From NCBI GenBank assembly GCA_000004985.1, contig GG738848.1: a DNA stretch of 64,000 bases; one strand, 5' to 3'. Source of the DNA: Naegleria gruberi. Taxonomy: Eukaryota. The position numbers and the translations under genes are program-made. The stretch's first letter is position 1. Every line of letters starts with the position of its first letter. This document shows positions 1,701 to 44,382 of the stretch, piece after piece. The notes beneath the pieces were generated by a model, which saw nothing but the letters and a program-made list of their open reading frames with translations, was not told where the DNA came from and ran no database searches.

Positions 1701-3925
1701 ATGCAAGAACCTCCATCATCGTCATCAGAAGGAAGTGATAATTCATCTACATCAGCAAAACCGAAAGTCATTGAATTGGCTAATATTAAAATACAACATC
1801 AACGCCAACCTCATGTTGAAGTAGTGGAAAATTCACCTTTAAAAACACCAACAGTCAAATATAACGTCGACGATGAGGATAGTGATGATGAAGAAGTTGT
1901 ACAACAATCAAGAGGCAGAGTTGCCGAACATCAAAGTCTATTAAATGGGGAAACGGAACGTGAACATCTCGGAGTCACAAATCTAGATGCCTTCTTTCAA
2001 CAAGTTTATGTATACTTCTATGAAAAAGGCTTTTGGTGCATGTTGGTAGATAGATGTCTACGATTATGGTTTGTTTCGAATATTATTACATTGTTTATTT
2101 ACAATATTATTACAGTACTGTATTTTTCATGATGATATTCTCAACTTTCCTATTTGTATTTCTAAATTGGTATGATATGTGGCATTGTCAGGATGTTGCT
2201 TGTAAAACAGTTCCAGTTTTTCGTAAAAATGTTTGGACAATGAATGCCTTCCATATTGTTGTCCTCTTATTTGAATTCGTTGTTTGTTTTTATTGGATGT
2301 ATTTACTTGTAAAATATCTGAGGGATTTATTGGGAATGTTATCAATCAAACACTTTTTCAATACTGAACTTAATATAACTGAGAAGGATATTCAAACTAT
2401 TCAATGGGTTGAAGTTGTAGAAAAGATTATTGAATTCCAAAATAAGAAAAAGATTAATATTATCAAAAACGTAGACGAATTCGGTATGTATGATTGATTT
2501 TAAACAGTTTTACTGATTGTTATTTAATTAGATATTTTAAACCGTATTATGAGAAAAGAAAATTACTTGATATCATTCATCAATAAGGATGTTATGAATC
2601 TAACACTTCCATTCTCTCAGAAAACTTATCTCTCTGAAATTATTGTTTATAACTTGAGAATTGTTGTAGATAACATGTTCGATAGCGAATTCAAAATTAA
2701 TGAGGCCTTTGTAAAAAACCCAAATGCTCTCAGAGCTTTCTTTGTAAAATTGGGTCTCATTAATTTATTACTCGCACCATTTTTACTTATATATATTATT
2801 TTGTACACTTCATTTAAATACTTAGCCGTAAGTTTTCAGATTGTTTAGTTTAAATTATTTATCATTCAAAAGGAGCTCAAAAACGATCCAAAGAAAGCAC
2901 TTGGAAGAAGGTGGTCATTATATTCCACATTCAAATTCAGAGAGTATCATGAACTTGCTCATGAATATGAGAGAAGACTAAAGGAAGGCTATGGCCCATC
3001 TATTGATTATTTAAATCAATTCCCTAATGTCTTACTTTCTATTGTTGCTAATAGAGCAATGTTTTTTATATCAGCAATAGCCGGAGTAATAATTGTACTT
3101 TCATACTTGAATAACTCACTTACTCTTTATTTGACAGTATTTAATCAAAACTTATTGACTTGGTTGACAACTTTATTATTGGGTTGGGCATTTGCTAAGG
3201 GATTTGTAATTGACGAACATGCCGTTTTCAATCCAAAACAAAAGCTAGATGATGTTTGTGAAATTTTACACCACCACGATCTTAAATGGAAGGGTAAAGG
3301 TCACCATCACGATGTGAGAGATGACTTTGTTGCCCATTTCATTCCTAGCTATTCCTACTTCTTGAATGAAATTGTCAGTGTATTTGTAACACCTATTATC
3401 CTCATTATTTCATTACCAAGAAGTGCAGAGAGAATATCCTCCTTTGTTGATCAAATCACTGTTGATTATCATGGATTAGGACATATTTGTGGTCATGCTG
3501 CATTCAAATTTAATGAATTTGGTAATGATATGTACGGTAGTCAAACTCTTGGAGGTACCAAGCATGCTGCTTCTGAGCATGGTAAAATGGAGTTATCATA
3601 TCTCAGCTTTGTGAATAGATATCCAAACTACAAACCAAAGGATGACAATGGAGAAAAGGCATTTATCAATAACCTTAATCAATCTATTCTTGCAAAGAAG
3701 GAAACCATTAAGGAACAACAACAGCAAGTAGAGCAACCTCCTGTTCAACAACAAGCTGCCAAATTCTCTCCAGTTGTCATAGTGCAACCACCAAGAGAAA
3801 ATACTCTTCGTCCTCCTGTACAAAATGATCTCTCTGAGTCTAGACTTCTTTTCAATATGTTGGAAAGTCAATATCAAATTAGAATGGACCAATCTATGAA
3901 TCAGTCAACCTGGAGAAGAAAATAA
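1701..3925 (+). CDS. ATG9: Autophagy protein ATG9, join(1701..2068,2116..2483,2532..2827,2873..3925)
   Basis: Four ORF-track pieces are in compatible phases once introns of 47, 48 and 45 nt are removed (donors GTTTGT, GTATGT, GTAAGT; acceptors acag, ttag, aaag). Conserved ATG9 core motifs are present: LDAFFQQVYVYFYEKGFWCML and ILNRIMRKENYLISFINK. Multiple TM segments. Confidence 0.8.
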
Positions 3926-4970: not shown

Positions 4971-6763
4971 ATGAAATTCAATCAAAAAAAAATGTCCAAA
5001 CAACTAGTCCGAAATGTTCTCCTCCAAACAAGCAAGAGAAGTTTTCATACCAGTGCTCAATTAAAGAAGGATTACATCTTGGGAGTTTATAAAGATGGAA
5101 GTTTTTCTCCATCAGCCTATAATTTATTATCGGAACAATTCTTGTCATCACCATTCTTTACAAAGAAGGATTGGAAGGAAGGAAAGATTTCTCTGATTGA
5201 TTGTGGAATGTTTTTTGATGGAAATAAGTGTAGTATTGCAAAGAATGAAATTACTACTGATGATAGAATAGTTTTTGTTGGTTTGGGAGAAAAGGATGTT
5301 TCTACAAAGAAAATTTCATACAAGAAGAAGTTGTTTAAGGAACAATTTGGTCAACATGAAATTGTTGATATTAATCAACCAAGTGTTAGAGATTTGGCCC
5401 AAAAAGCTGTTCAAGCCTTGTTGTCTGATGTTAAAAAACCAAAGGAAGAAAAATCTGAAAAGTCTGAAGAAGAGGAAAATGATTCTACTCTTGAAGTTTT
5501 CATTGATGATTTGACTAATGGTCAAGAAGCAGTTGAAGGATTAAAACTTGGAAGTTGGAAGTTTATTAAATTGTCAAAGAAAACTGCCAGTAAGACACTC
5601 AATCAATTATCTGAAGGAAAGGTTAATGTTTCTTCTAATATTGAAAAGGAAGTTATTGATAGAGCTATTATTTATTCTGATGCTCAAAACTTTTCAGCAT
5701 ACTTGTCTGAATTACCTGCCAACTATCTCACTCCAAAGTTGTTCTGTAAAACAGTAACTGAAAAATTCCAAACTGAATTGGGTGATTTACTCTCAAAGGA
5801 AAATTCACCATTAACCATCAAGGAACACGACAAGAAATGGTGTGAAGAAATGAAGATGGGATCTTTCTTGGGTGTTTCTCAAGGATCTGCTGAGGAGCCA
5901 AGAGTGTTAGAAATTACATTCATGAATAATCCAAAAGATAACACCAACTTTGATATTATCTATGTCGGTAAGGGTATCACTTTTGATTCTGGTGGTATTT
6001 CAATTAAACCAGCTGCAGGAATGAAAGATATGAAGGGAGACATGTCAGGTGCTGGATCTGTTATGGCAACCATGTTGGCTGTTTGTAAATTGAATCTTCC
6101 TGTCAATATCAAGTGTATTGCCATGTTGTGTGAAGTAAGTACATTACAATATTTCATTCATAATTAACATTTGAAAGAATATGCCATCCTCCACTGCCTA
6201 TAAACCAGGTGATGTCATTACAGCAAGAAATGGTAAAACCATTGAAGTTGATAACACTGACGCTGAAGGTAGATTGGCTCTTGCTGATGGTTTGTGTTAT
6301 GCTTCAGAATTCAAACCAAATCATTTGATTGATGTTGCCACTCTTACAGGTGCTTGTGTTGTTGCTTTGGGAACCAAATTGACTGGTTGTTATACCTCAA
6401 CTAATGACATGTGGAAGAGATTTGAAAAGTCAGGTATTAACACAAAGGATTATGTAAGTATTTCACAATCTCATCAAATTTCTGACAATTATTCCAATCT
6501 AATAGATGTGGAGAATGCCATTCATGCCAACTGAATATGAAAAGCAAAATGAAAGCAATGTTGCCCATGTCAAGAACTCTGGAGGTAGAAATGCTGGCAG
6601 TATCACTGCTTGTTGTTTCTTATCCGAATTTGTTGATTTTGAAAAGGTTCCAAATTATGCCCATCTCGATATTGCTGGAACCAATTCAGATGCTAAGGGA
6701 ATTCACAATGGTCGACCAACAAGAGCTCTTATTGAATATGTAAGACTCTTACAAGAAGAATAA
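4971..6763 (+). CDS. Leucyl aminopeptidase (M17 family), join(4971..6134,6178..6453,6506..6763), with a presequence-like N-terminus
   Basis: GTAAGT donors at 6135 and 6454. Acceptors aaag at 6177 and aatag at 6505. All junctions are phase 0. M17 catalytic motif NTDAEGRL and C-terminal ...[12 protein letters not shown]... are conserved. Confidence 0.85.
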
Positions 6764-7013
6764 ACCCTTATTATTATTAATACCTTGATGCAATAATATT
6801 TTCTCTAGAGATTGTCACAGTTTCGGCAACAATTTCGTTCCACTCTTATACAATGTTGCTTAAGAGCTTGATAGTAAACTAAATGAGCACGAAAATGAAT
6901 GAAATATAAAAATCTCTCTAACAGGATAACTAACTTTTGGGAAGATTTAGGATTACTTGCCATCTTTCGTCAGGTTTATTTAAAAAGAAAGCCCTCAAAG
7001 GCCATAAGCATCA

Positions 7014-8492
7014 ATGTTAACTGTGCCTTGTGCCACAACAGAATTCGAAACAATTACCGGTGCCACAGACATTTCGGGCAAAGTAAAAGAAACACAAAAA
7101 ACAATAGAAACAACGAGAAGATCTTCCATTGCAGATATTTCAGAGAGTTACCCAAGTGAATTTTCATTTCATTCAAATTCGTATCTACCACCTGCTAACT
7201 ATTCGAATCCTTCCGAAACCGTTGATGATCACCAACAAGAACCAACAACACTCATTGATCAACTCATACAAACTTTTGACGAATTAATAATTGATAAATT
7301 AGTGATGGGATTACTTACACCAAGAAAAAGAGAACGATTCTCTCTAAATCATCAACATTCGAATAATAATTTAACACCTCTCAGTCCAATAACAAACAGA
7401 AAATCAACACAATCCATGCCAACAACTCCTGTTGGTGAAGATGATTTTGTGAGGATCATGTTGGTGAGTGGAGAAAATTGGGGAGTTGGACAATCATCAA
7501 TTGCAAAGAGATTTGTTTTAAACCAATTTGTAGAGGAAAAGGATTCGGATTTTGTTTCGAAACATGTTTCTAAAAGTTATTCGAAAGAGATTATTCTTCG
7601 AACAGCAACACAAGAAAAGAATAATTTAACACTCCTTGAAGAAAATAACAATAGAATGAAGGAAAATGTTACTGGAAGTGTCGAATCAATTTATTACACA
7701 ACACCACAAATGGCAAATAATAATTTACTAACAATAGGACAGCAGCAGCAACATTCGAATAGTGTTGGGCTTAGTAGTGAAAGGATGAGTTATTTGTATG
7801 ATCAGCAGACAAATGCTTCACCTTCAACTCATTCTCTACTTTCTAATGCTTCATCATCAGTTTCTAATAGTTCAGAATCTTTACTTTTTCATCCAAGAAG
7901 CAATGTAATACTCCAAATTGAAGATTATGTTCCATCCTATATTACTGATTTGGAAACAACCGATGATAGATTATCAAATTGTGAAAATTATTATGATGAA
8001 CAGTTTTATTTGGAATTTAAGAGAAATCAACAAGATTATTATTATGAAAAAGATGTTTTCCTGATTTGTTTTGATGGAAAGAATGAGGATTTTTTGAATT
8101 ATGTGTACAATGAGATTGAAACTATTCGAAATGCATGTGATGAATTCACTGAATATAAAATAATTGCCTTAGTTTTGACTAAACAAGATCTCAACAAGGA
8201 ACAAAATCAAGCAAATGAGGAAATTCATGCCACCACCAGTACTACTATTCTATCTGAGGAGAAACGAGAACAAATGATTGAAAAATTATTGGAAGAAACT
8301 AAATTGGAATTGTTTAGAGTGAGTGCCAAGGATAATGTCAATATTCAGGAATTATTCCAACAAATGGCAGAGAAGGCAATTGCTGTAAAGGAAAAGAAAT
8401 CAAGACTCAAAGCAAAACTGAAAAAGAAAATGGACACTCATCAACATAATAGACAATATGAACAACAAAAACATAAATGTTTATTACAATAA
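7014..8492 (+). CDS. Divergent Ras-superfamily-like GTPase-domain protein (possible pseudo-GTPase) with a long N/S-rich insert
   Basis: ATG at 7014. P-loop-like MLVSGENWGVGQSS lacks the GKS/T. Later DVFLICFDG and IALVLTKQDL sit at G3/G4-like positions. Low-complexity S/N-rich middle. Lys-rich C-terminus. Confidence 0.45.
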   Translation: MLTVPCATTEFETITGATDISGKVKETQKTIETTRRSSIADISESYPSEFSFHSNSYLPPANYSNPSETVDDHQQEPTTLIDQLIQTFDELIIDKLVMGLLTPRKRERFSLNHQHSNNNLTPLSPITNRKSTQSMPTTPVGEDDFVRIMLVSGENWGVGQSSIAKRFVLNQFVEEKDSDFVSKHVSKSYSKEIILRTATQEKNNLTLLEENNNRMKENVTGSVESIYYTTPQMANNNLLTIGQQQQHSNSVGLSSERMSYLYDQQTNASPSTHSLLSNASSSVSNSSESLLFHPRSNVILQIEDYVPSYITDLETTDDRLSNCENYYDEQFYLEFKRNQQDYYYEKDVFLICFDGKNEDFLNYVYNEIETIRNACDEFTEYKIIALVLTKQDLNKEQNQANEEIHATTSTTILSEEKREQMIEKLLEETKLELFRVSAKDNVNIQELFQQMAEKAIAVKEKKSRLKAKLKKKMDTHQHNRQYEQQKHKCLLQ

Positions 8493-8679
8493 TTTGATAA
8501 TTAGATTTGGAGCATTTCATTGTAATCTACTCGTTCGAATACAAAAGCAAGCTGCAGTTGATGAAGACCTCCAAACAGCTACTACTTCCTCACAATTTCC
8601 AGAAACAATTCGTTAGCTCCTACTGAATATAAAATTTCAAAAATTAACAATTGTGATTGCAAAAGTTTTGGTTTTGCTA

Positions 8680-9618
8680 TCAGTGAAAGAATTGAATAGC
8701 ATTTCCATTAAGAATCATTTCCAGTAGTCCTAATTGTTGATCCACACAAATTGCTTTAACTATTCCATCAATTTCTTTGGTTTGTTTGTTAATCAAATTA
8801 AAATTCATGTCAATGTGAAATATTTTCAACCAAGTTTTAGGTTCCAAATTCAAAGAATAATAAATATAAATATTATTGGAATTTCTGTCATAATTCATTA
8901 AATATTCTGCTGAAAAATTAATTTCATATCTGCTTGATGAAACCCACTCATGATCACTCACTTTCCTATATATTTGAATATCCTTAACATTACAATAAAT
9001 AATCTCAGTATCTGAAATTGCATCAATCGCATAACAGCAATAAAAGGAAGGAAGATTATTCTTGATTGGCATTCCATCAGAACATTTATAACACTTGGTA
9101 TCTATGGATGAGTATTCAGCAGTGATTAGTATCCTTTCATTATCTAAATTTAGTGTTGTCATGCTAAAAGTTTCGTTTAATCCAAAGCTCCATAATTCGT
9201 CTCCAATTCCACTCAACCATTTGCTAAGTAAATATTTACAACACTTGTAATTGTTTGAGGAATCTTTGGTAATTATATAAATCTCATCGAATTCTTCATT
9301 AATTGTTGAACAAATGTAATCATTTCGGAAATTTATAATATTCGAAACTTTTCTATTATTTCTATTCAGTATAATAATTTCGTTTGGATAGAAAATAAGA
9401 ATACAATCAAATCGATAGGCAATTTTCAAATCACAATATGCTATCTCTTTGGAATTAATTTCTATTGGAATGTCATGAACTAGATCAAAATTCATGGAAA
9501 ATATTCGCTTGGCAGGTGACATTAATTTTGATTTCAACCAAACTTCAAGAATCTCATAATCATCTTCTAGTCTTGTTGAAGTTTTACGAAAATCAATCAA
9601 AGAAACAACAAAAAACAT
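8680..9618 (-). CDS. Hypothetical protein (about 312 aa)
   Basis: Long ORF 8680..9633. The first in-frame ATG is at 9618; the track M at 9633 is TTG. No recognised domain. Confidence 0.4.
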   Translation of the reverse strand: MFFVVSLIDFRKTSTRLEDDYEILEVWLKSKLMSPAKRIFSMNFDLVHDIPIEINSKEIAYCDLKIAYRFDCILIFYPNEIIILNRNNRKVSNIINFRNDYICSTINEEFDEIYIITKDSSNNYKCCKYLLSKWLSGIGDELWSFGLNETFSMTTLNLDNERILITAEYSSIDTKCYKCSDGMPIKNNLPSFYCCYAIDAISDTEIIYCNVKDIQIYRKVSDHEWVSSSRYEINFSAEYLMNYDRNSNNIYIYYSLNLEPKTWLKIFHIDMNFNLINKQTKEIDGIVKAICVDQQLGLLEMILNGNAIQFFH

Positions 9619-34449: not shown

Positions 34450-37400
34450 TTATTGTCTCTTGTATTTGATGATATATTCAGGATAGCACTGATATCTATC
34501 ATAGACAATCAATTCTCTATATGAATTACTTGTAGTATTTGATTGGCCAATCACACTATCAAAGACTCTTCTATTCTTTCCAACAATTTCTGGAGGTCTT
34601 CTTTGATTGGTCATTCCTTGGGGTGTGAAATAGACTTGTCTTCCCAAAACAACTCTACACAGGAATATAGTATATTCCTTATTAAGGTCTGGAGTGCAAT
34701 ATTGGTCACTCTTTGAACAATACTCAGCAAAATAAACTCCAGCTCCAAATAAACCACCCAAACTTGCAACTCTTTCATCAAATCCATGTTCTGAAATGGT
34801 TGAAACAAATTCAGGTTTTGTTCCGTGCCATAAGTACTTTTCATTCATTCCACTATTCAATCCAACTGTTTTCATCCATTCGTAGGATTTGCTTGTTTTT
34901 GGCAATAGTTCTGTTTGAACTTGGATTGTCTTGATAGGATCTTGATAAGATGTCAAATGATTCATTCTTGATTTGTATGAAGTGAAAAGTGTTGCATTTT
35001 CAATTCTTGAAACACTTGAAACAATTAATTTGGAATAATTCATTTTCACTTGTTGATCTCTACCAGTTCCAAGTGTTGCAGAATTACATGAAACATTGAC
35101 AATATCTTGAATGGTATTTTTCAAATATTTTGTAACATCCACAATGTAAAATCTTTTAGAATAGGATGTGAATGTATTTCTCTTCCAATAACTTGGCAAG
35201 ACAATATTCAATTGTCTAGATTTGGATTCTTCCAATTCCTTTTCCATGTCTTGTAATTTCTTTTCCTTACTTTTCAATCTGCTAATTTGATTTGTAATTT
35301 CTTCTCTTTCCTTAACACTTTGATTGGTGAATTCCTTTGTTTTCTGTTCAAGTTTCTTGATTTCTTGTGTGAGATTGGATTTATCTTGTTTGAGATTGAA
35401 TTTAACTTGATTCAATTGTTTTTCATATTCCTTCAATTGTTTTGATTGATTTGAAATGGATTTGACTTGTTCTTGAACTTTGATTTCATCCAAGAGAGTA
35501 TCCTTCAAAAAGAATTCACAAACAAGAGCATCTGATGCAAATGGTCTGTCATTTGGATCATTAGTCATACATTGTTGAACTAGAGTATTCAATGATGAGT
35601 AAGTATTCAATTCTTGAGCAGTCATACAATTCTTGATGGTTTTTCCAAATGCAAACATATCTGATTTGAATGTTGCTGATTGACCATTCATTAATTCAGG
35701 TGATAGATAGTCATATGTTCCAGAAACAGAAGTTCTAGTGTACAAATTCATTGTTCTACTTTGAACATCCAAACTAACATCAAAATCTCCCAAAATAATT
35801 GGATATAGACCATTGTTACATTCTCCAACAAATATATTCTCAGGTTTGATATCACAATGAATGACACCTCTGGAATGAATATGTTGAATGGCAATTAATA
35901 CTTGTCTCCATGTTCTTTCCCAAAAAAGTACTTCTAATTTGGTGGATTTTCTTTGTTTTTCAAGAAATTCCTTCAAATTACCATTCGAATAATATGGCAT
36001 TACAATATAAACATTGTTGGTGGAATGGCTATTATCATTAGACATGTAAAATCCTTCAATTTCAATAATATTGTTATGTTTCAACTTTTTTGTAATCTTG
36101 AGTTCTTTTTGTAAACTTTCCAATTTTTTGTTATCCTTGATTGAATATTGTTTAATGATATGTTTCTTATCGTTAATATCAGTTCCAATAAACAAGTGAT
36201 GATTTCCATTCCAATCTTGAATTGGCTTAATTTCTTTGAATAAATCGGCTGACATTTCTTCAATATTCATTGTGGATGCAATACTTGATGACAGGATTGA
36301 CTCAACATTGAATCCAATAGTTTTCAATTGGAGGAACTTCAACTTGATTTCATTTGTCTGTTCAATACATTCCTTGAGTACTTTCTTTTTTTCTTGTAAG
36401 GTTGTTTCCTTTTCTTTAATTTCATCCTCAATTTGCATGGATTCAGTCTTGTTTGTAACATGTACTAATTCATCTCTCAATCCATCAATGTCAAGTTTAA
36501 TAATGGTCAATTCTCTTGTTACTCTTGCTTTCTTTCTTTGTAAAGCAGAATATTGTTCTGTCAATTGCTTGTAATCATTCATAATGTTTACAATATTTTG
36601 CAATTGTTCATGTTGTTCAATAATGAATGGAATGGTTTCTTGAATGAGCTTGTTTCCATTATTAAATTGATTTTGATAATCACAATAAATTTGATAAATT
36701 CCAATTTGAACTAGTTCAGGAAGCAAATTTTTAGTATTAGAAATTGCTTTTTGTAATTCCAATTCCTCCTTTGAAAGCATTTCCATTGCAATCTCTAAAT
36801 TATTTGCAATTCCATTCAAATTAACACTTGTGGCATTATTAATGGATGATGCAATATTTTGTAATTGAGTTGAAATATTTTGTAAAACATTTTTGGATTT
36901 TCCTTCATAATTTGAATCTGTAGTTGAACCATTTAAACTTTTAAGTGTTTTTTGAATTTTTTCAATTGTTAATTCCTTATTTAGGTTATCATTAGCATTG
37001 TAATATTGTAATTGATCTTGATTCAAGTAATTTTGAACAAATTCATCAAATATTTGTAATTTTTCATCTAATGCTTGAATATAGCTATTCAATTGAATTA
37101 AATAATTTTCTGAATTAATTCTTTCTACTATATTTGTAATATTTAACATGTCATTATTAATTAAAGCCACATGTTCAACATTTTCAATATCACACTTATT
37201 ATTCATCAATCTATCATTAATAGTTGAACAACATTCGGATAAAACTCCATTAATTTTCGAATAAACTTGTTGTAGCTCAGTATCAAATGATAATTGATCT
37301 GAAAGTGGAATTACCGAATTCAATTGAGAAGTTACTTGTTTTCTATATTGAGAAACTTTCTCATTCAATGAACACAACTCTGTGAAAACTTGAAATACTG

Positions 37401-38571
37401 AAAGGAAAGTTTGTTTCTTTTCCTTTTCAATTCTTTCCTGTTCAAGTCTTTCGTTTTCAATTCTTTCTTGTTCGAATCTTATTTGATCAGCACGTTCCTT
37501 TTCAAGTCTCTTCTTTTCCAACATTTCTTTTGTAATTCTTTCCTTTTCAATTCTTTCCTTTTCGAGTTTGTCGACTTCTTGTTTAATTATGGAAATTGAT
37601 TTTCCATTAATTTTTAAATTGTTATCAACAACGATATTTGGGGAAGCAAGTAGCAATTTGACAATTTCTAAATTTCCTTTTTGGCAAGCAATAAACAAAG
37701 GAGTGAACTATATATGGTAATATAACTAAATTAATAAATTAAATTTACTTACATTCTAATAAAAATTAGTAAAAAATTTAAATAATAATTGATTGCTTAC
37801 ATTCTATAATGATACATTGAGTATTGAAATATTTCAAATAAATTTTTACTTACATACTAAAATTAATTAATTAAAAAAAATTAATAAAAAATTTTTACTT
37901 ACTCGCTATTTAAATTTTAAATAAAATTAAAAAATAATTAAATACTCACATCCTAATAAACAATATTAAAAAATCAATTAAATTTTACTTACAAACTAAA
38001 TAATATTAACATGTAAATAATAAAATATTATTACTTACAAACTATTATTTTAAAAATTATAAATTTTAAAAATTAAAGCACTTACTCTCTAATAATTATT
38101 TAATACATTTAAAATTAAGTATATTAAGTAATACCTACTTCCTATATAAATATTAAATAAAAAATCGACCATGTAAAATACTTACATACTAAAAATGGAA
38201 TTAAATAAAAAAATAAAATTTTTAACTTACAGTCTATTAAAAATTAAATAAACATTTAAATATAAAACACTCACACCCTACCATCATTAATATATCCAAT
38301 ACATTCACTTCATAACTACTTACACACTAAAAATGTCAACTGTCAACACAATAAATCAAATACTCACACCCTTGTTCACATTAATTTCTGCATAATTCAA
38401 CAATAATTTAACAATTTCCACGCGTCCATTTTCACAAGCATTATACAACATTGTCTTTCCTATTTTTCCATTAGAATATTCATTGATATCTGCTTTTTTA
38501 AACCATTGTTTAAATTCCTTGACATTTCCTGTGGAGGCAGCATCAAGTGCGTTCTCAAAGTTTTTGGACAT
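34450..38571 (-). CDS. Ankyrin-repeat / coiled-coil / protein-kinase-like / PARP-catalytic-domain fusion protein. Last exon 34450..37707, first exon 38368..38571, separated by the mini-intron array.
   Basis: ANK repeats in both exons (GKTMLYNACENGRVEIVKLLL; TPLFIACQKGNLEIVKLLL). Kinase catalytic loop HCDIKPENI with DFD and SPE. C-terminal PARP fold with H-G-T...Y...E (WHGTKPEF, GAGVYFAEY, YRELIVYD). The exon 1 ATG is at 38571; the track M at 38592 is GTG. The internal exon structure is in the feature at 37708..38367. Confidence 0.7.
37708..38367 (-). other. Array of 14 consecutive canonical mini-introns (40-50 nt each), separated by exactly 3-nt spacers (13 putative single-codon micro-exons)
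   Basis: On the minus strand every unit reads TAG|NNN|GT(A/G)AG(T/C). Plus-strand spacer positions are 38324-26, 38274-76, 38231-33, 38186-88, 38139-41, 38086-88, 38039-41, 37993-95, 37950-52, 37903-05, 37854-56, 37801-03 and 37753-55. Unit interiors share no sequence similarity. Only the splice signals and the 3-nt spacing are conserved. Confidence 0.6.
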
Positions 38572-42507: not shown

Positions 42508-44382
42508 TTATTTCAAACCATCTAAACACAATTTTAAATCATTTTTAGAACAGGGCTTTAAGAGAATTTTGTCGAAAATTTCTCTACTTTGTTCTTCCTC
42601 TGCCGTCAGAACATTTCCTGTGATTAAAATTAGTTTGAAACTATTTCCGTATAATCTCCTTAATTCTTTTCCTGCTTCCAATCCGTTCATATTGGGCATA
42701 TTCTATTTACGCATAGTATTATATATTAATATCAATTAAATATTGGTAATGAAACAAACCATATCTGTAAATACAATTTTGTGATTTTTGTAATTGTCTA
42801 AAAGCTCGCGTCCATCTGAAACTGAATCTGCAGCATATCCCAAGGTACTGAGCATTTTTAAAAGGATTTTTCTATTAACTGGATTATCTTCTGCGAGTAT
42901 GATTTCATTTTCTGATTGTTTGGAACTGGAAGCAGCTGATGAAAGTCTTAAATGTTCCTCATGAATTGTCAATTGTGACTCTACAATCCGTTCCACTGTT
43001 ACTGATTCATTATCAACAAAGTCAGCAAGTTCAAATGGTATTGTAACAGCAAAGTCACTTCCAACTCCAACTGTTGAGTCAACATTAATGGTTCCTTTCA
43101 TATGATTTAATAATATGGAAACAGTTGTTAATCCTAATCCCGAACTTGGTACCTTTGATTCATTATTATTATCCAGTTGGACAAATGGCTCAAATATTTT
43201 GGAAATCAATTCTTTAGGAATTCCCTTTCCCTTGTCTGATATTTTAAATTCAATTTTGGCTGATTTTTCATTCTTTTCCAAGATAGTAGCAGTTAGAGTT
43301 ACATTTGATTTAGGCTTGGATGCCTTGATAGAGTTAGTTAATAAATTAGAGAGTATTTGATAAATGTAAGATCTGTTGCTTTTCACTATCGTATGTGAGA
43401 GTGAATCACAAATAAAATTTAGGTTGATTTCGAATTGCTTTGCATATCCTGAAATAATATTTTGAAGATCAAAGAGACATTTTTCCAGTTCAAAACTTTC
43501 CTTCTTAATTTCATGATCAATTTTTTCTTGGTTAGTTTCATTCTCAATTCTAATTATTTGCAAAATATCCTCAATTAATAGAAGTAAAACATTGTTCGAG
43601 GAAAGGGCCATATCCACTAATTCTGTTTGTGATGAATTTAATTTAGTTTCCTTCAGTAATTCTAAGCATCCTCTGCTTGACATTATAGGACATCTAAATT
43701 CATGTGAGACATGACTCAGAAATGTATTCCTGACCGTTAAAGCTTCCTCCAATTTGGCCCTAGTTTGCTCCAACTTTTCAACCTTCATTGATAGGTATCC
43801 AGTTACGTTGACCAAACTATAAGTTAAAATCCAAAACGAGGCAGCCAATCCAAATGATTCACACAATGAAGTAATCATGTCTACCGTTAATCCGTTAGCA
43901 ATATAGTCCACTATCCCAGTATAAATTCCACATGAAACAAACAGTGTAGTAAAATATAGAGTTGGTATCAGTCCCAGAACTGTTGATTGTAAATACCACT
44001 TATTCTCAAATAGTAACCATATTATCACAGCAGGAATGAACAAAATCTTATTCGATTTGAACAAGAAATACCGTATAGTTGCCGAAACAACCCTTCCCAG
44101 CAGAATATGCCAATCCATTGTCTTGGTTGTATCCTCATTATTTAAAATATTGGCAAGACTCGATCTATTAGAAACAAACAAAAACAAGGCTATTGAAATA
44201 TTCAACAAATTCCCTATCCAATCCAAAGAAACCAATCCATATACTATTGCCAATACATTACAAATCATTAAACTCAAAACAACTCCTTTAGGTGATGAAA
44301 TCATCCTTAACAATTTCAATTCCCATTCACTTCCTTTCCTAGCTGCCACAAAATCATATACTTTAAATTCTTTCCTATTCAT
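42508..44382 (-). CDS. Hybrid sensor histidine kinase (multi-TM sensor, HisKA, HATPase_c, receiver), complement(join(42508..42702,42760..44382))
   Basis: H-box FLSHVSHEFRCPI. N, G1 and G2 boxes (ILSNLLTNSIKAS, DKGKGI, SGLGLT). The receiver begins ILAEDNPVNRKILLKMLSTLGY...IVFTDM and is split by a 57-nt intron (GTTTGT donor, aaatag acceptor, phase 0). It continues NMPNMNGLEAGKELRR...LLKP. Confidence 0.8.

Follow-up and report, generated by a model that had tools for sequence, protein, structure and literature searches.

The window analyzed here, a stretch of 64,000 nucleotides (64 kb) from contig GG738848.1 of Naegleria gruberi, carries on its minus strand what is probably an intact gene for a fusion of a protein kinase with an ADP-ribosyltransferase of PARP type (PARP, poly(ADP-ribose) polymerase). 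The coding sequence runs from an ATG at position 38571 to a stop codon at position 34450. Its product of approximately 1153–1166 amino acids would possess two enzyme-type domains, a Ser/Thr-type protein kinase and a C-terminal tankyrase-like ADP-ribosyltransferase with an H-Y-E triad. As judged from the sequence, we interpret the protein as a bifunctional signaling enzyme in which coils and a docking module are combined with a kinase and a tankyrase-like transferase. To this reading as a whole we assign a probability of about 0.6.

Most of the protein is encoded by the terminal exon (34450–37707, minus strand, as are all features of this gene). It consists of a single open reading frame of 1085 codons followed by the stop codon (34452–34450). 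No stop codon was found in this frame in the 3255 nt before position 34452, and the junction between the kinase and PARP parts is unbroken. From the N- to the C-terminus the order is ankyrin repeats, a coil rich in E/K/R, a helical region, the kinase, a coil-like linker and the PARP domain, which ends at the stop codon. Exon 1 (38368–38571, ATG at 38571–38569) encodes residues 1–68 including ankyrin repeat 1 (GKTMLYNACENGRVEIVKLLLNYAEINVN). The terminal exon encodes ankyrin repeat 2 (FTPLFIACQKGNLEIVKLLLASPNIVVD, 37624–37707), the E/K/R-rich, coiled-coil-like helical stretch (KLEKERIEKERITKEMLEKKRLEKERADQIRFEQERIENERLEQERIEKEKKQ, 37411–37590), a helical region of approximately 390 amino acids (36241–37410), the kinase domain (35497–36240), a second coiled-coil-like linker of approximately 100 amino acids (35200–35496) and the PARP catalytic domain (34453–35199). 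Both coiled-coil assignments were made from composition, i.e. the content of E/K/R/Q. The first stretch contains 50–68% of these residues and neither Pro nor Gly.

An earlier note on this DNA had placed ankyrin repeats, coiled coils, a kinase-like domain and a PARP fold in one polypeptide. This was borne out by the open frame 37707–34450, by a Pfam scan in which Ank_2, Pkinase and PARP all scored above their gathering scores, and by the homology of exon 1 to the N. gruberi proteins P0001 and P0102. The motifs that it had quoted (HCDIKPENI, DFD, SPE, WHGT, GAGVYFAE and YRELIVYD) are all present in frame. Neither outcome that it had named as refuting its reading, a C-terminus without profile support for PARP or a break separating kinase and PARP parts, was observed. 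It had also given the gene a span of 34450–38571. Start and stop stood, but what separates exon 1 from the large exon does not look like one ordinary intron and reads as 14 mini-introns, which are described below.

The PARP domain was matched by PF00644 with 78.3 bits (gathering cut-off 26.7, E 7.5e-22). It contains LPSYW in a strand region at its N-terminal side, LWHGT (34833–34819), GAGVYFAE (34746–34723), SDQY and YRELIVYD (34521–34498) and ends with YPEYIIKYKRQ. By sequence the closest solved structure was the tankyrase-1 catalytic domain (3e-16), followed by PARP12 (1e-15), PARP15 (4e-13), PARP14 (1e-10), PARP1 (1e-8) and PARP10 (9e-7). In the alignment with tankyrase-1 the H-Y-E triad is in register (WHGT/FHGS, GVYFAE/GIYFAE and YRELIVY/YAEYVIY); the catalytic Glu coincides, as does the second Tyr (SDQY). 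The stretch from GFDERVASLGGLFGAGVYFAE to SKSDQY is almost identical to the matching tankyrase segment. The D-loop segment is very similar to that of tankyrase and of nearly equal length, and is preceded in the fusion protein by two extra residues (KP). Where tankyrase carries its zinc-binding insertion (C..THKDRSCYICHRQ), this alignment is gapped and the fusion protein reads YCTPDLNKEYTIFLCRV.

A model of the PARP domain calculated with AlphaFold (AF2) from 40 homologs reached a mean confidence score (pLDDT) of 89.8 and a predicted template modeling score (pTM) of 0.89. The best Foldseek matches of this model were tankyrase 1/2 and PARP15, with a probability of 1.0 and TM scores of 0.73–0.83 on the target. 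The aligned 40 homologs do not vary at Y163, and at least 90% of them share H132 and E236. Profile, alignment and model thus agree with the C-terminal ADP-ribosyltransferase fold carrying an H-Y-E triad that the earlier note had claimed. The domain is probably catalytically active as a transferase.

A resemblance to tankyrase had been noticed before and holds in part. Tankyrase 1/2 (PARP5a/b, clade 4) provided the best match among solved proteins by sequence as well as by structure, and the NAD+ site is nearly identical (GFDER...G.FGAG.YFAE..SKS.QY). Both proteins are devoid of the helical regulatory (HD) domain, in both the PARP domain is preceded by ankyrin repeats, and both have an element suited to self-association, SAM in tankyrase and coils, assigned by composition, in the fusion protein. 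However, tankyrase contains five ankyrin repeat clusters (ARCs), whereas only two repeats were detected by Pfam in the fusion protein, where the approximately 390-residue helical region and a full kinase are inserted between ankyrin and PARP parts. Furthermore, the ankyrin module is not conserved within the kinase-PARP family. A SAM domain was not found by Pfam at E ≤ 0.1 in the fusion protein, which shows a coil at that position. Membership in the tankyrases was rejected since SAM, ARCs (two repeats only) and the zinc motif are missing.

The clade 3 enzymes (PARP7/TIPARP, PARP12, PARP14 and PARP15) have in common with the fusion protein an N-terminal region of strands (P.YW ... RIEN..LW..Y) and a YPEY(I/L)I motif at the C-terminus. 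PARP12 and PARP15 are nearly as close by sequence as tankyrase, and one N. gruberi relative bears the name 'TCCD-inducible-PARP-like' at NCBI. Human clade 3 enzymes lack the catalytic Glu (H-Y-I/L/T/Y). In contrast, this residue is kept in the fusion protein and in most of its family.

The kinase domain was matched by PF00069 with 114.3 bits (cut-off 31.7, E 8.2e-33). The match covers profile positions 32–195 only and leaves the glycine-loop region unmatched. Along the domain we found the variant P-loop WNGNHHLFIG, HIIK with the β3 Lys, KELK with the αC Glu, HCDIKPEN (HCDIKPENI at 35859–35833), DFD (GDFDVS at 35790–35773), SPE (LSPE at 35706–35695) and the subdomain XI Arg. NEK1, ULK1, NEK7 and PKR were matched among solved kinases with E values of 2e-18 to 6e-16 and with the β3 Lys aligned. 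The AF2 model built from 31 sequences (pLDDT 91.8) showed a full five-stranded N-lobe, αC and a C-lobe; only the activation loop was of low confidence. The best structural matches by Foldseek were active kinases: PKR led (27% identity), with TNIK, CaMKII and PAK4 close behind, at a probability of 1.0. Since many kinase groups gave similar scores, the domain is not assignable to a specific kinase family. It shares with PKR, NEK and ULK kinases the complete bilobal fold of eukaryotic protein kinases and all phosphotransfer residues. It differs from them in two motifs. The GxGxxG loop is not present, in line with the earlier note, which had seen no obvious glycine loop; WNGNHHLFIG stands in its place, and across the family this segment follows the consensus G-x-[RH]-H-x-V (GNHHLF in the fusion protein). 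The DFG motif is replaced by DFD(VS) throughout the family. Among the 31 sequences, which are 21–67% identical to the fusion protein, the following are invariant or conserved in at least 90%: the β3 Lys, the αC Glu, H-x-D-x-K-x-x-N, the Asp that opens DFD, P-E, and the Asp and Arg of subdomains IX and XI, respectively (alignment positions K52, E68, H150, D152, K154, N157, D174, P203 and E204 among them). Such conservation points to a kinase that is probably active and whose nucleotide loop is unusual.

The same data bear on the main rival explanation, a pseudokinase scaffold. Here the kinase part would bind nucleotide or protein without catalysis, and PARP would be the sole enzyme, regulated or positioned by the kinase-like part. 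A Pfam match that starts at profile position 32 in a domain that has no GxGxxG, DFD in place of DFG, and two family members that lost the catalytic Asp of the kinase and kept the PARP triad speak for it. These members are P0108 (EukProt GILK01005924), which reads HGN, and N. gruberi P0110 (XP_002679562), which reads HGNIRAAN; both would be pseudokinase forms of this fusion. On the other hand, all phosphotransfer residues are kept in the fusion protein and in most of the 31 relatives despite their low identity, and G-x-[RH]-H-x-V, the loop found instead, is itself conserved, which speaks for a functional variant that binds nucleotide and not for decay. We therefore regard the scaffold as rather unlikely for the protein described here.

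In the bifunctional enzyme both the kinase and the PARP domain would be catalytically active. The coils would mediate dimerization or oligomerization, which in turn would permit the conserved activation segment (RT..T..GT) to be autophosphorylated in trans. Docking of partners or substrates would fall to the variable N-terminal module, ankyrin repeats in this case. Phosphorylation and ADP-ribosylation might then act on the same recruited targets, or on each other as a form of auto-regulation. Several points weigh against this scheme. It was deduced from sequence and models. The coils were assigned from composition. The lack of GxGxxG and the exchange of the DFG Gly for Asp may affect ATP binding, and P0108 and P0110 indicate that the kinase can possibly persist as a scaffold in some members. 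Finally, polymer synthesis requires H-Y-E, but H-Y-E does not suffice for it: PARP3 and PARP4 possess the triad and are mono-transferases. As judged from its sequence, the PARP domain may make either mono- or poly(ADP-ribose).

Relatives of the fusion protein were searched with HMMER, using the kinase-to-PARP part (606 aa) as a query against 1.84 billion representative proteins. This search yielded 149 matches at E ≤ 1e-30. When 245 retrieved proteins were scanned with both domains of the fusion protein, 69 contained both, a cryptophyte protein among them, with the kinase N-terminal of PARP in every one. Relatives that matched from end to end were N. fowleri XP_044563143 (1353 aa, 51% identity, SNase + Pkinase + PARP), N. 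fowleri XP_044563812 (1105 aa), N. lovaniensis XP_044552390 (917 aa), a protein of Hanusia phi (1155 aa) and EukProt transcripts, including a transcript that combines WD40, kinase and PARP. Aligned end to end, N. fowleri P0104 was 51% identical over query residues 3–605 and N. lovaniensis P0106 44% identical. The fusion was further found in Apiculatamorpha spiralis (a prokinetoplastid), Bicosta minor (a choanoflagellate) and Ancyromonas sigmoides. Several relatives are transcript assemblies and so demonstrate co-transcription of the two domains. The linker between the two domains lies at the same position in the relatives and varies in length from approximately 10 to 320 residues. The N-terminal module differs as well, being ankyrin here and SNase, WD40 or nothing elsewhere. 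Since DFDVS and G-x-[RH]-H-x-V are common to distant members, the fusion appears to have a single origin. These shared motifs thus favor one old fusion with a variable N-terminus over repeated independent fusions.

The earlier note had called the architecture unusual. This is true in comparison with described PARPs, but the architecture is not rare in nature, as its occurrence in 69 of the 245 proteins and in many protist lineages demonstrates. No paper on a natural kinase-PARP fusion was found in the literature searched, of which the journal coverage was incomplete. As far as this literature goes, the family is widespread in databases and apparently undescribed.

The closest matches are N. 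gruberi proteins, identical at 62% of positions in the kinase part and at 84% in that of PARP. Two N. gruberi PARPs, 72525 and 80603, were described by Citarelli 2010 (PMC2964712) as short H-Y-E PARPs that belong to no clade and have no other domain. The second is P0014 (XP_002674589; EFC41845), which is 76% identical to the PARP domain of the fusion protein. Its accession directly follows that of P0001 (XP_002674588; EFC41844), an ankyrin-coil-kinase protein encoded on the same 371-kb scaffold. The P0014 model begins inside the PARP domain, directly downstream of this ankyrin-kinase gene. The tail of P0001 (..QFSNSKQRKTKKFQRNYKI*) compares with the paralog P0102 (..QFSNSKSKKSEEISKKLQN..) as a 1-nt frameshift would predict. 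Apparently, these N. gruberi models are split or shifted versions of the ankyrin-kinase-PARP architecture, and the split gene model gave rise to the published single-domain view of 80603. This correction concerns the paralog group that contains 80603. Other models of N. gruberi paralogs also deviate. Like P0014, P0013 (XP_002672366) starts inside or just before the PARP domain. In P0102 (XP_002671099) the ankyrin-coil part is joined straight to coil and PARP, and the kinase is skipped.

From N. fowleri, Sowa 2022 (PMC9688111) described NfTNKSL as a single-domain tankyrase-like ADP-ribosyltransferase and possible tankyrase precursor, for which a zinc motif was reported. By this description NfTNKSL is set apart from the fusion protein, in which the motif is absent. 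The orphan PARPs 80603, 72525 and NfTNKSL resemble the fusion protein in the H-Y-E triad and in their unplaced position between clades 3 and 4. They differ in having been described as short or single-domain proteins, whereas here, in N. fowleri and in N. lovaniensis the catalytic domain forms the C-terminus of a kinase fusion of 900–1350 amino acids.

The N. fowleri locus L001 (VFQX01000028.1) contains a kinase-PARP paralog (6001–9373) with a frameshift inside HCDIKPEN at approximately 7958–7989, due either to an assembly error or to a decaying copy. The annotated protein XP_044563812 bridges this frameshift by an artificial intron, so that GVIHCDIKPEN is missing from it. Directly upstream on the same strand lies an ADP-ribosylglycohydrolase gene (PF03747; 3950–5898). 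Possibly, the two neighbors are a writer/eraser pair.

Such gene models raise the question of an artefact, in which ankyrin exon, kinase and PARP part would be pieces of distinct genes or transcripts, or would have been brought together by misassembly. The counterpart locus in N. gruberi is indeed annotated as two genes, XP_002674588 and XP_002674589, and both published surveys handled the PARP part as stand-alone. However, the frame described here is free of stop codons over its 3255 nt, the N. gruberi tail is explicable by the 1-nt frameshift relative to P0102, and independent continuous open reading frames exist in N. fowleri, in N. lovaniensis, in a metagenome contig (P0015) and in several transcriptomes. 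This explanation is largely refuted and we consider it highly improbable.

The variability of the family suggested yet another role by analogy with PKR and the antiviral PARPs. In a conflict or immune system the N-terminal module would sense pathogen or stress, and kinase and PARP would serve as effectors. Such a sensor-effector would fit the changing N-terminal modules (ANK, SNase, WD40 or none) and the many Naegleria paralogs, some of which are broken (P0001/P0014 split, P0102 kinase-less, P0110 degenerate and the N. fowleri frameshift). It would also agree with PKR as the top structural match of the kinase, with a PARP domain scoring between tankyrase and PARP12/15/14, and with the ADP-ribosylglycohydrolase gene adjoining the N. 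fowleri paralog. All of this support is circumstantial, though. PKR is only marginally ahead of TNIK, CaMKII and PAK4, some of the frameshifts may be assembly errors, and no defense theme is seen among the neighbors of the fusion gene, which show a weak scramblase-like match and a PH-domain protein. An immune function is consequently an improbable alternative to the bifunctional signaling enzyme.

The intact fusion gene and its full-length relatives revise the published view of the tankyrase-like Naegleria PARPs as short single-domain proteins and possible ancestral tankyrases. The catalytic domain of the paralog group containing 80603 is instead the C-terminal module of a large kinase fusion that occurs in fixed order in Discoba, choanoflagellates, ancyromonads and cryptophytes. 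A kinase hard-wired to an H-Y-E transferase would offer a natural system for crosstalk between phosphorylation and ADP-ribosylation. The genus Naegleria also includes a lethal human pathogen, and the paralogs carry drug-like pockets of the PARP-inhibitor and kinase-inhibitor type.

The N-terminal part of the protein was examined on the spliced sequence. Ank_2 was matched with 59–65 bits, above its gathering score; Ank_3 and Ank matched as well, the latter with 53–55 bits in two stretches. The repeat of exon 1 taken by itself was recognized by Ank_2 at 8e-8. Exon 1 has homologous counterparts at the N-terminus of both P0001 and P0102 of N. gruberi, where this part is contiguous with the remainder of the protein. 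The helical region that follows the first coil gave no Pfam match; among Naegleria relatives its conservation extends as far as the N-lobe of the kinase. BLASTP showed 38% identity to N. gruberi P0001 and 24% identity to N. fowleri P0241 (434 columns, E 5e-28). A word-indexed homolog search with this region gave no match and missed even P0001, which reflects a limit of the tool and is not evidence.

Between exon 1 and the large exon lie 660 nt (37708–38367) that we read from the sequence as 14 introns of 40–50 nt each, separated by thirteen exons of 3 nt. These introns start with GT[AG]AGT (once GTAGGT, once GTAAGC) and all end with TAG. Most of them contain, as seen by eye, an element resembling TTAAT or CTAAT 8–14 nt before the AG. 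The micro-exons are TGT GGT ACT TAT GAA AGA TTT TTT GAT CGA TAT AAT AAT and would encode C G T Y E R F F D R Y N N. In size and motifs the units match six control introns elsewhere in the window, where typical introns measure 43–54 nt and read GTAAGT...TAG. The pattern AG-NNN-GTRAGT occurs 17 times on both strands of the 64 kb, and 12 of these 17 occurrences are inside the array; other spacer lengths from 0 to 12 between AG and GTRAGT were found 0–2 times per strand. Recent tandem duplication was rejected as the origin of the array because the units are only about 60% alike and yet the splice motifs are kept in 14 of 14.

Exon 1 closes in phase 0 (...AAC AAG GGT/gtgagt) and the large exon likewise is in phase 0; hence any subset of the micro-exons keeps the frame. 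If all of them are retained, the two ankyrin repeats are linked by NVNKG-CGTYERFFDRYNN-FTPLF, and the corresponding linkers of the paralogs are DVNLTDYRDYSPLY and DVNLSTTYYTFMTPLY. The ankyrin profile gave 59–65 bits with none, all or some of the micro-exons and was not discriminating.

A metagenome scan for similar arrays returned 120 loci, nearly all of which were satellites or repeats of the (GTAA)n type (L007, L027, L031, L077 and L088). The sole comparable locus was L066 (JACKZZ010005374.1, approximately 1720–2000, minus strand) with five putative introns of 53 nt that are 94–98% identical. The spacers between them are unrelated triplets (GAA, TTG, TCA, TAT and CGT). Nearly identical introns with unrelated triplets argue for intron copies at successive codon boundaries and not for duplication of whole units. 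This array is located downstream of a short open reading frame on a contig of 25% G+C. Tentatively, the array in the window may thus consist of 14 separately spliced introns that arose by a process copying an intron to successive codon boundaries, of which L066 would be a young version. We hold this to be possible, with the balance of doubt against it.

Micro-exon genes (MEGs) of Schistosoma have exons of 3–81 bp (PMC10526429). As in the array described here, runs of very short symmetric exons can be skipped with preservation of the frame. The MEGs differ in that their exons are mostly longer than 3 nt, their introns extend up to 5 kb and their products are secreted proteins, whereas all thirteen exons of the array measure 3 nt, its introns 40–50 nt, and the product is an intracellular-type signaling enzyme. 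A description of runs of 3-nt exons was not found in the same incompletely covered literature. If the array is spliced as read, it would bear on intron multiplication and on the smallest exon that a spliceosome handles. If it also arose by copying of an intron, it would represent an undescribed mode of intron proliferation, and it may let the loop that joins two ankyrin repeats vary without loss of the frame. To our knowledge, no denser run of 3-nt exons would be on record.

The window is gene-dense and has a G+C content of approximately 33%. Further copies of the ankyrin-kinase-PARP gene were not found within its 64 kb. An open reading frame on the minus strand (42736–44382) encodes HisKA and HATPase_c together with the beginning of a receiver domain, and thus resembles a hybrid histidine kinase in this eukaryotic window.

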